Notes under the pieces: model-generated
The model's database searches: none
What the model was told of the DNA's origin: nothing
Seen by the model: the letters and a program-made list of their open reading frames with translations, nothing else
Position numbers and translations under genes: made by a program
Assembly: GCA_019358935.1 (NCBI GenBank)
Contig: JAHHIK010000018.1
Coordinates: 30,591-94,590 of the forward strand
Reading direction: 5' to 3'
Origin: Tolypothrix carrinoi HA7290-LM1
GTDB lineage: Bacteria > Cyanobacteriota > Cyanobacteriia > Cyanobacteriales > Nostocaceae
DNA length: 64,000 bases
Shown here: positions 6,289 to 26,549 of the stretch, piece after piece
Layout of the letters: each line of letters begins with the position of its first letter
How positions within the stretch are numbered: position 1 is the first letter of the stretch

Positions 6289-7158
6289 ATGAAAAAATTG
6301 TTAATTACTGGTATTAGTGGCTTTTTAGGATGGAATATTTGCCAGTTAGCACGAGAATGGCAAGTTTATGGAACTTATTTATCTCATTCTCTGAATATTC
6401 CCGGTATAAACACCCTAAAAGTTAACTTAACAAATTTTCCAGAAATTAAACAAATATTTGATGAAATTCAGCCAGCAGCAGTAATTCATACTGCCGCACA
6501 ATCTCAGCCAAACTTTTGTCAAACCCACCCCGAAGAATCACACGCAATCAATGTAGAAGCATCGAGTAATATAGCTGGACTTTGTGCGGATTATAATATC
6601 AAGTGTGTTTTTACATCAACTGACTTAGTTTTTGATGGCTTGAATGCACCTTATAGTGAAACAGACGCAGTATGTCCGGTAAATCTTTACGGTGAGCAAA
6701 AAGTGATGGCAGAAGCTGCTATGCTGAAACGATATCCGATGACAGCAGTGTGTAGAATGCCGTTAATGTTTGGGATGGCTACACCCACAGCTACAAGCTT
6801 TATGCAGCCATTTATGCAAACTTTGAAAGAGGGAAAAGAACTAAAGTTATTTATAAATGAATTTCGCACCCCAGTAAGTGGAAAAACTGCCGCAAAAGGA
6901 CTTTTATTAGCGTTAGAAAAAGTCAACGGCATAATTCACTTGGGTGGTAAAGAGCGGATTTCGCGTTATGATTTTGGTAAGTTATTAGTAGAAGTATTTC
7001 AACTGCCTTCTACAAATTTGCAAGCTTGCCGACAACAAGATGTGAAAATGGCAGCACCCAGACCTAGTGATGTTTCTTTGGATAGTTCTAAAGCTTTTGC
7101 GTTGGGGTATAAACCTTTATTTATAAAGGAAGAATTAAAGGCTTTAATTAATAAATAA
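6289..7158 (+). CDS. RmlD-like (dTDP-4-dehydrorhamnose reductase family) extended SDR
   Basis: LLITGISGFLG, STDLVFDG, YGEQK, APRPSDVSLD. Confidence 0.85.
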   Translation: MKKLLITGISGFLGWNICQLAREWQVYGTYLSHSLNIPGINTLKVNLTNFPEIKQIFDEIQPAAVIHTAAQSQPNFCQTHPEESHAINVEASSNIAGLCADYNIKCVFTSTDLVFDGLNAPYSETDAVCPVNLYGEQKVMAEAAMLKRYPMTAVCRMPLMFGMATPTATSFMQPFMQTLKEGKELKLFINEFRTPVSGKTAAKGLLLALEKVNGIIHLGGKERISRYDFGKLLVEVFQLPSTNLQACRQQDVKMAAPRPSDVSLDSSKAFALGYKPLFIKEELKALINK

Positions 7159-7162
7159 TAAC

Positions 7163-7263
7163 CTCACGCAAAGGCGCAAAGACGCAAAGAAAGATTTACT
7201 TTGCGACGGCAGTTGCTTCAAGCCGGGAGACCCGTCCAACGCACTGCCTCGTCTTTGCGTGAG
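7163..7263. repeat. CGCAAAG-type palindromic repeat with a nested GAGGCAGTGC...GCANCTGCCG cassette
   Basis: ctcacgcaaag...ctttgcgtgag arms enclosing the cassette in reverse orientation. Confidence 0.75.
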
Positions 7264-7267
7264 ATTT

Positions 7268-10174
7268 TTATGAATAAGCGTCCATTGGCAGACAAGAACA
7301 AACAAAATTCCTGTCACCATAGGCATTGTCAATTCTACCTACAGACATCCAAAATTTATGTTCGCGAGTCCAAGGTGCAGGATATGCAGCTTGTTCGCGA
7401 GAATAGGGATGATTCCATTCTCCGGTGATGAGACTTTCGGCACTGTGAGGTGCATTCTTCAAGACATTATCTTGAGCATCCATTTTGCCTGATTCGATTT
7501 CGGCGATTTCTTTACGAATCGCAATCATCGCATCGCAAAAACGATCTAATTCTTGTTTTGATTCGCTTTCGGTGGGTTCTACCATGATTGTACCAGCGAC
7601 GGGCCAGGAGACGGTTGGTGCATGGAAACCGTAATCCATCAAACGCTTGGCAATATCATCGATGTCGATATTCGCGGATTTTTTAAGCGATCGCAAGTCT
7701 AAAATGCACTCATGGGCAACTAAAGCATTTTTCCCTTTATATAAAACAGGGTAGTACTTTTCAAGTCTCTTAGCGATGTAATTCGCATTCAGAATCGCTA
7801 CCTTGGTTGCATCCTTCAAACCATCCGCACCCATCATCGCGATGTACATCCAAGATATTACCAAAATGCTAGCGCTACCCCAAGGTGCAGCTGCGATCGC
7901 ACTAATCGATTTTGGATTATTTTCGTGCATTTGCACAACGGAGTGTCCGGGTAAAAAAGGCACTAAATGAGAAGCAACACCAATTGGTCCCATACCCGGA
8001 CCACCACCACCATGAGGAATACAGAAGGTTTTGTGTAAGTTCAAGTGACAAACATCAGCACCAAAATCTCCCGGACGACAAATACCAACTTGGGCATTCA
8101 TATTAGCCCCATCCATGTAAACTTGTCCACCGTGAGAGTGAACAACAGCGCAGATTTCTTGAATTTGCTCTTCAAATACGCCATGAGTTGAGGGATATGT
8201 CACCATTAAAGCAGCAAGTTGGTTGCTATGCTTTTCTGCTTTTGCTTTTAAGTCGTTTAAATCAACATTACCTTCCACATCACAAGCAACTGGTACTACC
8301 TTCATCCCGGACATCACCGCACTTGCGGGATTTGTTCCGTGTGCAGATGTGGGAATTAAACAGATATTGCGGTGTTGTTCTTTGCGACTTTCGTGATATT
8401 CACGAATTACTAAAAGTCCCGTGTATTCACCTTGAGAACCGGCGTTTGGTTGGAGAGAGATTCCGGCAAAACCGGTGATTTCTGCCAACCATTCTTCAAG
8501 TTGATCGAACAGAATTTGATAACCTTGGGTTTGCGATCGCGGGGCAAATGGATGAATATTACCGAATTCCGCCCAAGTTACGGGTATCATTTCCGATGTT
8601 GCATTCAACTTCATCGTACACGAACCCAAGGGAATCATCGATGTAGTTAAGGACAAATCTTTACTTTCTAACTTGTGCAGATAGCGCAATAACTCAGTTT
8701 CTGAATGATAGGAGTTGAAGACGGGGTGGGTGAGGTAGCTGGTTGTGCGCTTTAGGGGGAGAGGGGGAGAGGGGGAGAGGGGGAGAGGGGGGGATGGTAA
8801 TTTGTCGTCAAAAGCGAAAATCTCTAAGAGGTCTTCTAAATCTTTTACTGTCGTTGTTTCACCTAAAGATATCCCAACCGCAGTTTCATCATAAATCCGC
8901 AAGTTGATTTTTTGCGCTTCGCAAGAAGAGAGAATTGCATCTTTACTGCGTGTTCCCAACTCGACTTTGAGAGTATCAAAGAAGTTTTCGCTGACGATGC
9001 TGTAACCGAGACGTTTCAATCCTTCAGCTAACATTACTGTCTTGCTGTGGATATTCTCGGCAATTTGCTTAAGTCCTGCTGAACCATGATATACCGCGTA
9101 CATACTCGCCATCACCGCCAGCAGTACTTGTGCTGTACAAATATTGCTAGTTGCTTTATCGCGACGAATGTGCTGTTCGCGGGTTTGTAAAGCCAGACGC
9201 AATGCCGCTTTACCTTGAGAATCTTTTGATACACCGACAATCCGCCCTGGAACTTGCCGCTTATACTCTTCTTTGGTGGCGAAGTATGCCGCATGAGGTC
9301 CCCCAAACCCCAAGGGAATACCAAAGCGCTGCGTGCTTCCTACGGCGATATCAGCGCCAAATTCGCCAGGGGGTGTTAACAAAGTTAAGCTTAATGGATC
9401 TGCGGCTACCGTTACCAATGCACCCTCAGCATGGGCTTTTTCTATAAAAGCGCGGTAGTCATAAATCGTGCCATCACTAGCAGGATATTGGAGAATTGCT
9501 CCAAATATCAATTGTGCGAAATCAAAGGTTTGATGGTCGCCAACTACGATCTTAATTCCTAAGGGTTTCGCCCGCGTCTGCAACACGTCGATAGTTTGCG
9601 GATGACAGTCTTGCGATACAAAGTAGCTATTTGCCTTATTTTTGCAAACACCATAACTCATACTCATTGCTTCTGCTGCTGCGGTTGCTTCATCCAGCAA
9701 GGAAGCGTTAGCAATTTCCAAACCTGTCAAATCGATAATCATGGTTTGGAAATTCAGCAGCGCTTCTAATCGTCCTTGGGCGATTTCTGACTGATAGGGA
9801 GTGTAAGCTGTATACCAACCGGGGTTTTCTAGAATATTGCGCTGTATTACAGGCGGGGTGATACAGTCGTAATATCCCATGCCAATGAATGAGCGGTAAA
9901 CTTCATTCTTGACAGCGATTTGTTTTAACTTTGCCAGTGCTGCATACTCACTTAATGCTTCTGGCAATTGTAAAGATTGTTTCAGCCGAATTGCCTGGGG
10001 TACTGTTTTGTCGATGAGTGCATCGAGGTTGGAAATCCCCAATAATTCAAGCATTTGTTGGATGTCATCAAAGTTGGGTCCAATGTGACGTTCCGGAAAA
10101 TTACTTGACTTTTGACTCGTTTGACTCAGTACCTGCTCATGGCTTGACTGAGGACGAGAGGCGTAGAATACCAC
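7268..10174 (-). CDS. gcvP: Glycine dehydrogenase (glycine cleavage P protein)
   Basis: [48 protein letters not shown]. Confidence 0.98.
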
Positions 10175-23678: not shown

Positions 23679-25414
<1,736 letters not shown>

Positions 25415-25420
25415 AACTGC

Positions 25421-25426
25421 TATAAT
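25421..25426 (+). promoter_or_regulatory. -10 box upstream of tRNA-Arg
   Basis: tgcTATAAT about 20 nt before the tRNA 5' end. Confidence 0.55.
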
Positions 25427-25445: not shown

Positions 25446-25766
25446 GGGGCTGTAGCTCAGTTGGATAGAGCGAGCGCCTCCTGAATAATCGGGCACCATG
25501 AAGGAAACTTGATGAGTGAATGTGGTTAAATTCGGTGAACCCTAAAGAGTATGTTTACTAGAGTGTTGACACTTCAAGGGAATACCGAGCCAAGCCTGAA
25601 TCGAAAAAACGAAAACAATGTTATAACTTCGACTCAGGAAGGTGTAGAGACTAGATAGCCACCACCTAAAGGCTAAAAAGCCTATGGTGAAGGTATAGTC
25701 CGGAGAGTGGGGAAACTCACACAAATCTGAAGCGCTAGGTCGCCGGTTCGAACCTGGCCAGTCCCG
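25446..25766 (+). tRNA. trnR-CCU: tRNA-Arg(CCU) containing an intron; exons 25446-25482 and 25730-25766
   Basis: Acceptor GGGGCTG/CAGTCCC; D-arm GCTC/GAGC; anticodon stem AGCGC/GCGCT with loop CT-CCT^AA; T-arm GCCGG-TTCGAAC-CTGGC; CCA not encoded. Confidence 0.95.
25483..25729 (+). ncRNA. Group I intron (247 nt, no ORF)
   Basis: P1 CCU^GA-AUAA-UCGGG with a U.G pair at the 5' splice site; P AAATTCGGTGAA; Q AATACCGAGCCA; R GTAGAGACTAG; S AAGGTATAGTCC; P7 GACTA/TAGTC; terminal G at 25729. Confidence 0.93.
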
Positions 25767-25925: not shown

Positions 25926-26549
25926 TTGTTTTTCTTTTTAATTAGAGAAAATTCTCTGAACAGACGAAGTAGTAGAGCCTTGAATAAGTTACTTTTTACA
26001 GGGAAATCATTTCGATTTATGGTTATTGCCCTACCGCTGTTGATGTGGTTGGGATATAAGGAAGTTAAAAGCCAAGTTGTACAACCCCAAGCGGTCTTAG
26101 TTTTGGGTGGTTCGACTGCGAGATTAGAACGAGAGAAGTTTACAGCAGATTTTGCCCGTAAGAATCCAAATTTACCGATTTGGATTACTGGTGGTAGCCC
26201 AAAAAAGACTACTGAAAGAGTGTTTGCTAAAGCAGGAGTTGATCCCCGACGTTTACACCTGGACTATGAAGCGGTAGATACAGTTACAAATTTTACCACA
26301 TTGGTGGATGATTTGGAAAAGCGCGGCATTAAGAGTGTGTATTTGATTACATCAGATTATCATATGCGCCGCGCCTGTGTGATCGGCGAGATTGTTTTGG
26401 GTAGTCGGGGGATTATATTTAAGCCAGTGTCGGTTCCTTCACAGCGATCGTCTGAACCAATTGAAAAATCAGTCCGCGATGGTGCTAGGGCTTTAGTTTG
26501 GATGACAACTGGCTACACAGGGGCAGATGAAGCGAAAAATAAGCGGTGA
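25926..26549 (+). CDS. YdcF/DUF218 family protein (alternative start ATG 26019)
   Basis: VLVLGG, AVDTVTNF, LITSDYHMRRA. Confidence 0.88.
   Translation: MFFFLIRENSLNRRSSRALNKLLFTGKSFRFMVIALPLLMWLGYKEVKSQVVQPQAVLVLGGSTARLEREKFTADFARKNPNLPIWITGGSPKKTTERVFAKAGVDPRRLHLDYEAVDTVTNFTTLVDDLEKRGIKSVYLITSDYHMRRACVIGEIVLGSRGIIFKPVSVPSQRSSEPIEKSVRDGARALVWMTTGYTGADEAKNKR

Follow-up and report, generated by a model that had tools for sequence, protein, structure and literature searches.

The tRNA-Arg(CCU) gene in the window, the 64,000-nt stretch of Tolypothrix carrinoi HA7290-LM1 DNA analysed here, is split by a group I intron of the Arg.5Ug class. Taken as a whole, its history is probably best explained as that of a decayed allele of an HNH-encoding intron, inherited for the most part at its locus and belonging to a lineage in which the catalytic core appears to have been exchanged with a LAGLIDADG-encoding type. 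The intron itself belongs to a known class and is more ordinary than the original prediction held, so that its history is the interesting part. Whether cyanobacterial tRNA introns are ancient or mobile has long been debated on the grounds of intron trees, and core swapping bears directly on this debate, since one intron can then hold two histories. The tRNA-Arg(CCU) introns represent a common and under-annotated third tRNA intron of cyanobacteria, for which two endonucleases, one of the HNH and one of the LAGLIDADG type, are pointed to as candidate vehicles of spread.

The split tRNA-Arg(CCU) gene and its locus

A 247-nt insert (25483-25729, forward strand) lies directly after U36 and ends with G. 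The 5′ exon (25446..25482, forward strand) finishes with the anticodon CCU at U36 and equals the first 37 nt of the intron-less genes of relatives, and the 3′ exon (25730..25766, forward strand) does not encode CCA. Spliced in silico, the exons give a clean tRNA-Arg(cct) cloverleaf, in agreement with the complete cloverleaf split after CCU that had been proposed from the letters alone. The expectation that standard callers may miss such a gene was likewise borne out: default ARAGORN calls zero genes in the window, and the split gene is called once introns are enabled. A sigma-70-like promoter is predicted upstream (25399..25426, forward strand), with a -35 element at 25399-25404 and an extended -10 element, TGnTATAAT, at 25418-25426, this being purely a consensus match, of which 2 sites were found against 1.2 expected in shuffles. 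Two neighbouring genes serve as synteny markers, one for a tocopherol cyclase upstream (24200..25414, forward strand; PF14249) and one for a DUF218 protein downstream (25926..26549, forward strand; PF02698), and the position of the intron locus 3′ of the tocopherol cyclase gene is syntenic in several genera.

A search of the genome with RF00028 yields three group I introns, in tRNA-Leu(UAA), tRNA-fMet and tRNA-Arg(CCU); the presence of three split tRNA genes within one genome (loci L001 on C30 and L003 on C11) is an observation in itself. Arg.5Ug introns were reportedly first described in Agrobacterium. In the available part of Williams 2020 (bioRxiv 10.1101/2020.01.27.920355), from which the numbering of insertion sites is taken, Arg.5Ug is one of four classical bacterial tRNA intron classes and is marked IC3, split tRNA genes number 0.69 per genome in cyanobacteria, and genes may be present in introns longer than about 400 nt; its phylum table may already have counted cyanobacterial Arg.5Ug introns. 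The present intron resembles this class in its tRNA, the site after U36, U(-1), the terminal G and a compact core, whereas, unlike the alphaproteobacterial members, the cyanobacterial copies appear to form separate lineages, have a different P9 end and carry or carried endonuclease genes.

Structure of the group I intron

The identity of the insert as a compact tRNA-type group I intron with a core of type A is supported by hand-placed helices, by covariation and by its match to Rfam RF00028, where it scores 61.3 bits against a cut-off of 50 (E 1.5e-14), a model check that had been suggested at the outset. Helices P1 to P9 were placed by hand on the present copy, all on the forward strand. The 5′ outer shell (25480..25518), common to type B copies of the same genus, consists of P1 (25480-25493), which contains the splice-site U.G, and P2 (25494-25518), which is capped by a GAAA loop. 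An exchangeable core block (25522..25662) follows, comprising the P3 5′ strand, P4 (25532-37/25583-88), P5, P6, the P7 5′ strand (25647-53), a short J7/3 (25654..25657) and the P3 3′ strand (25657-62); at J7/3, type B copies have an arm, P7.1, in which the LAGLIDADG gene or its stub is located. The 3′ outer shell (25663..25729) consists of P8 (25663-89), the P7 3′ strand (25696-701), P9.0, P9 with a GAAA loop, and the terminal G. The U.G pair of P1, a P7 of GACUA/UAGUC and the terminal G, all read correctly in the original prediction, are confirmed on this structure. Every core pair is intact, and a single G.G mismatch is found in P2.

The P3-P7 pseudoknot, the P4-P6 domain and the G-binding pair of P7 are all present, as expected of a group I intron, and insertion after the third anticodon base of a tRNA-Arg, with U(-1) and a terminal G, places it at Arg.5Ug. 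The compact layout and the alignment with Ile2, Leu and fMet introns fit a putative assignment to subgroup IC3. P8 and P5 resemble the receptors of the GAAA loops L2 and L9. The fold has a z-score of -4.0, none of 200 shuffles being equally stable. Across 43 cyanobacterial copies chosen for spread, 98.2% of the cells pair (29-39% in slid controls) and two-sided changes occur in 29 of 63 pairs, a covariation that 0 of 500 shuffles attain and that is to be read as support and not as a probability, since the structure was taken from the present copy and the copies are related, with many changes coming from the single split between cores A and B. In these copies P3, P6, P7 and P8 are 100% paired, two-sided changes affect P3, P4 and P7, and 39 of the 43 rows retain the U.G splice-site column, the others being shifted in the alignment.

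From established group I chemistry we infer self-splicing of the intron. P1 would set the U.G 5′ splice site after transcription, free guanosine bound in P7 would attack, the terminal G would then take the place of the guanosine, and the joined exons would yield the mature tRNA. Like the pre-tRNA-Ile(CAU) intron of Azoarcus, as far as this is described in the available text of PMC13168695, the present intron is a small group I intron in a tRNA anticodon loop, whereas the tRNA is a different one, the length is 205 nt there and 247 nt here, and splicing has been demonstrated for Azoarcus and is predicted here. Ile2 introns occupy the same 36/37 site as the present intron, and the betaproteobacterial ones share the short P9 end.

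The HNH endonuclease gene and its fossil stub

The stub of an antisense HNH gene lies in P5/L5 (25542..25577, reverse strand), where a TTG start opens 11 codons, LKCQHSSKHTL (25577-25545), closed by a stop codon; the endonuclease ORF of the present copy is thus not intact and persists as this stub only. Of the 20 loop bases of the stub, 16 agree with the 5′ end of a long copy, and the score of the stub on a profile of eight long copies was equalled by 2 of 200,000 shuffles. The former HNH start codon (25575-25579), which overlaps the P5 3′ strand, has become TTG in the present copy, and two genomes of the genus have ATG. Among relatives, the stub reads MKCQHCGQKTTNPTF in g162, MKCKDGLLIF, a fusion of start and end, in g172, and MKCQHYGKHTL in the genus of the present genome. 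Stubs of differing lengths are found in genera g1, g9, g162, g172, g193 and g200 and constitute a graded deletion series, whose differing end points argue for independent deletions of the HNH gene.

Long copies of type A contain a 153-residue ORF with a zinc finger and an HNH domain, which is antisense, starts in the P5 3′ strand and ends in the P5 5′ strand. In relatives, this ORF matches PF13391 over the cut-off (E 4e-12), with H113, N134, C139 and H143 as invariant residues. Its matches to the HNH domains of TagI and of the McrA type are weak, with nothing reaching E 0.001, and a fold search with the HNH model likewise gave nothing at that level. The full-length insert is present in six genome copies, with an unbroken frame in four, and the HNH gene occurs in 7 of 401 genomes, in two of these inside the intron. 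A search of the present genome with the HNH and LAGLIDADG queries of relatives found no close copy of either elsewhere. Judging from the sequence of these remains, the intron lineage is not ORF-less by origin and descends from an HNH-encoding intron, so that the initial notion of an ORF-less import is not supported.

The HNH family comprises 462 homologues. In viral and metagenome sequences, 108 distinct loci of the family were examined, and 99 of them have a tRNA gene, which in 79 cases lies within 150 nt of or around the ORF, a proximity counted with no control family; the tRNA genes commonest beside these loci are Arg(UCU) (18) and Arg(CCU) (14) by their ARAGORN labels, several intron-split ones being in fact Arg(UCU). 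Fourteen genes of the family lie antisense in L5 of tRNA-Arg introns (11 found by script and 3 by eye; 10 supported by Rfam). The cyanobacterial HNH enzymes form one clade (96), placed weakly beside free-standing genes that adjoin tRNA-Arg(CCU) (86). This genomic context suggests that the HNH enzyme would cut intron-less tRNA-Arg genes. It can be proposed that the lineage once held an antisense HNH homing gene in L5, most likely directed against such genes, which would have been lost by several independent deletions. With only the gene ends left, the present copy would be unable to home by itself. According to PMC2330249, SegB of phage T4 is a free-standing homing endonuclease of a tRNA cluster that cuts tRNA gene DNA, and the HNH family similarly has many free-standing members; unlike these, SegB is a GIY-YIG enzyme that recognises the T-loop motif, the target of the HNH enzyme being a predicted one.

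Two further observations concern this family. The metagenome introns of tRNA-Arg(UCU) and tRNA-Arg(CCU) with an antisense HNH gene in L5 (L290, L296, L298, L300, L303, L314, L326, L332, L335, L338, L331 and L364) are of a non-cyanobacterial type, several of them mislabelled by ARAGORN. Five genomes of family f52 (L283-L287) have an intron-free arrangement in which a free-standing gene of the HNH family directly adjoins tRNA(CAU) and is encoded on its opposite strand.

Core types A and B and the LAGLIDADG gene

Two core types can be distinguished by P4, which is CGGU/ACCG in type A, including the present copy, and CAAG/CUUG in type B. A set of 133 typed copies holds 61 of type A without a long insert, 6 of type A with the HNH insert, 36 of type B with LAGLIDADG, 25 of type B with a J7/3 stub and 5 bare type B copies, counts that are not frequencies, the set being enriched for LAGLIDADG copies by design. 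Linkage is complete, with 36 of 36 LAGLIDADG genes in core B and 6 of 6 long HNH inserts in core A; none of the 133 copies combines core A with LAGLIDADG or core B with HNH, as a partial hybrid would.

The gene of type B copies is a LAGLIDADG_2 gene (PF03161, E 8.5e-40). It is present in 73 of 401 sampled genomes, and the best 30 of the 73 are all inside the Arg(CCU) intron. In a survey that left out three copies, both catalytic acidic residues are kept in 11 of 36, one in 12 and none in 13, so that many LAGLIDADG copies cannot drive anything; the G496 and G897 copies keep both catalytic aspartates. Frames stay open in many copies without either residue (13 of 36; L035-L038, L069, L395-L402), which hints at a possible second role, such as help in splicing. 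Upstream, the frame is also open through P1-P7 (L203:2477-3247, L034, L374), and the LAGLIDADG copies of family f1 have ATA in place of the usual ATG, preceded by a purine run like a ribosome-binding site.

The Synechocystis tRNA-fMet intron with I-Ssp6803I, according to the available part of PMC3073962, is likewise cyanobacterial and is mobilised by an endonuclease gene of its own that overlaps the RNA structure. A PD-(D/E)xK enzyme is encoded there, in P1, whereas the Arg(CCU) site has been used by two endonuclease families, HNH antisense in L5 and LAGLIDADG at J7/3.

Probable exchange of the core between alleles

Within the genus of the present genome, a single locus holds six type A copies (the present one included), two of type B, one of them cut by a contig end, and three exactly empty alleles. 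Type A is also the state of the genome at the base of the genus in the flank tree, the host tree being poorly resolved and the downstream-flank tree containing one non-homologous row. Same-genus pairs of A and B (g1, g260 and g23) show 1-2 differences in the first 50 bases and 0-2 in the last 72, against 17-19 in the 30 bases after the first 50. G496 (B) and G492 (A) have no difference across about 101 outer bases and 32 across 65 P4-P6 columns; G950 (A, full-length HNH) and G897 (B, LAGLIDADG) have one outer difference, the next neighbour being at 9-10; and the g23 pair has two. The switch points agree in three genera, the one studied here among them, the left one at about P3 5′/P4 and the right one directly after the LAGLIDADG gene.

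The LAGLIDADG gene of G496 is 97.4% identical to that of G483, from another genus, and the tocopherol cyclase genes of the present genome and G483 are 81% identical, which indicates a recent transfer of core and gene into a resident intron. Homing of the whole intron would have carried in the outer parts of the donor, which differ at 7 or more positions. This comparison of alleles indicates that the catalytic core and its endonuclease gene have been exchanged inside a resident intron, the direction being argued for genus g1 alone. The P4-P7 core would have been replaced by recombination with a type B intron, bringing the LAGLIDADG gene. Trees of the outer shell, with seven copies left out, were too short to resolve. 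A search of viral contigs for the cyanobacterial intron-end pattern gave 0 matches, so no phage vector with that exact pattern was seen.

The intron would have been mostly inherited at the locus and sometimes lost precisely, and several gains would account equally well for the three empty alleles that lie among alleles with the intron. At one locus the genus has empty alleles, alleles with the HNH stub and alleles with LAGLIDADG, and g260 holds both full-length enzymes in one shell; with such alleles, target sites and natural swaps of ribozyme domains are directly testable.

As to how the core was swapped, a first possibility, to which we assign only just under an even chance, is that the exchange was driven by the enzyme. 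The LAGLIDADG protein would cut the resident type A intron at its empty J7/3, and because P4-P6 differ between the types, repair would run back to P3/P2, so that the invader would replace the whole core and evict the HNH gene. Three genera share the two breakpoints, of which the right-hand one immediately follows the gene, and this reading would also account for the complete linkage of each enzyme to its core and for the catalytic aspartates kept in the recently transferred G496 copy and in G897. The five closest viral relatives of the LAGLIDADG protein (L405-L409; 31-40% identity) sit in group I-like introns after the P7 5′ strand, a position read by eye and supported by Rfam for L405 only; with no tRNA nearby, they suggest that the family tracks an intron position and not tRNA exons, although at such identity they may have other targets. 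PMC4964425 cites a precedent by Sellem and Belcour, from the introns nad1-i4 and cox1-i7 of Podospora, in which an optional ORF enters a resident, ORF-less intron together with flanking intron sequence; there the ORF is added, in fungal mitochondria, whereas here the catalytic P4-P7 core gives way to another and the other endonuclease gene goes with it. Against enzyme-driven exchange, the target site is a candidate only, and the breakpoints lie in the only long blocks common to both types, where any recombination would end. This reading refines the best overall explanation and does not exclude it.

The second possibility, which we rate somewhat below even, is a passive swap in which both enzymes would target the intron-less tRNA gene only. 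Incoming DNA would recombine with the resident intron at the shared blocks, and the resulting mosaics would spread by drift or by ordinary homing into empty alleles. Empty alleles do exist in the genus, the breakpoints coincide with conserved blocks, and homing endonucleases normally cut intron-less alleles (as stated in the available part of PMC3984707), but one rare event would have to have recurred in three or more genera without leaving a partial hybrid among the 133 copies.

Extending the enzyme-driven exchange, one may picture two unrelated endonuclease genes in competition, the HNH enzyme spreading the intron and the LAGLIDADG enzyme cutting the resident copy, replacing P4-P7 and evicting HNH. 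The ribozyme would then be a host-tracking shell with an exchangeable core, and the present copy a decayed HNH state awaiting invasion; on the sequences compared, we hold this picture to be nearly as probable as its opposite. In the accessible text of the literature searched, mostly open access (including PMC8450103, PMC5733544, PMC4853749 and PMC3610870), we found no cyanobacterial Arg(CCU) introns with these endonucleases and no account of an HNH fossil stub or core exchange in Arg(CCU) introns.

Distribution and origin

Intron-level matches (E under 1e-20, the other matches being exon-only at 6e-12 or weaker) were counted by hand in 51 of 401 genomes of the phylum, 50 of them within the 130 genomes of the order. 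In the order sample, family f3 has the intron in 24 of 25 genomes; in the family of the present genome 61 of 389 match, and 51 of the 60 other matching genomes were taken for comparison. The insertion site was the same in all 45 of the 51 phylum-level matches that were inspected. The Arg(CCU) intron is therefore common in cyanobacteria and patchy in the family. A pattern scan of all species genomes gave at least 121 loci, of which 99 were resolved, all split after U36; among the matches listed, these 99 fall in tRNA(CAU) (58), Arg(CCU) (31), Thr(UGU) (5), Arg(UCU) (3) and Asn(GUU) (2), and the cyanobacterial hosts include Nostoc linckia, Microcoleus, Okeania, Spirulina, Crocosphaera and Prochloron.

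[quoted passage not shown] Read in this way, the intron would be a sporadic import derived from the alphaproteobacterial ones. The shared insertion site and the patchiness in the family speak for such an import, but the nearest relatives are cyanobacterial (94-98% identity within the genus), the locus is syntenic across genera, the HNH stub is present, and the counts in order and family do not suit a rare import. The suggested intron phylogeny gave a divided answer. With P9 included, in an alignment that is poor between the cyanobacterial, Ile2 and Arg(UCU) introns on one side and the alphaproteobacterial group on the other, 11 alphaproteobacterial Arg(CCU) introns form their own clade (99/98), separated by a 100/99 branch, on the other side of which the cyanobacterial copies group with Ile2 introns and with Arg(UCU) introns that bear the HNH gene; with the core alone, P9 and 15 further rows being left out, a joint cyanobacterial and alphaproteobacterial clade is not rejected (AU p 0.34). 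A recent alphaproteobacterial donor is not supported by these trees, a recent origin of this kind is largely refuted, and we regard the import as very improbable.

A type A, cyanobacterial-like copy (L171) lies on a 3.4-kb contig of a Sericytochromatia bin and may be mis-binned. Group I-type introns after U36 are also seen in proteobacterial tRNA-Thr(UGU) and tRNA-Asn(GUU) genes (L073, L123, L133, L153, L161, L098 and L099).

Expression and decoding of AGG

Four RNA runs gave contigs of relatives only and no CCU splice joint, the sole joint being that of a tRNA-Arg(UCU), and in 24 RNA runs that were checked none contained half of the query words. In one run, contig depth is high over the intron and 0-4 over the flanks, on contigs of relatives that cannot give levels. 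The intron-bearing copy is the only canonical tRNA-Arg(CCU) gene of the genome. A tRNA-Arg(UCU) gene on contig C50 is intact, and such a tRNA is able to wobble-read AGG, which accounts for 6.4% of Arg codons in long open frames; AGG reading need not depend wholly on the split gene. An alternative in which the gene is a tRNA pseudogene, its intron a dead relic and AGG left to tRNA-Arg(UCU), would suit the intact tRNA-Arg(UCU), the low share of AGG, the G.G mismatch in P2 and the missing splice joint in the contigs of relatives, but is highly doubtful given that no core pair is broken, the exons agree with those of relatives without the intron, the upstream region contains a promoter-like site and the pairing is kept throughout the family.

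A second functional tRNA-Arg(CCU) gene was considered on contig C42 and rejected, the call being degenerate and having no Rfam tRNA match at E 0.1. The array on that contig (L403:900-1500) is small, with degenerate members that include a decayed Arg(CCU). A second tRNA array, with at least 20 tRNA calls, is located on contig C183 near 6800-8500.
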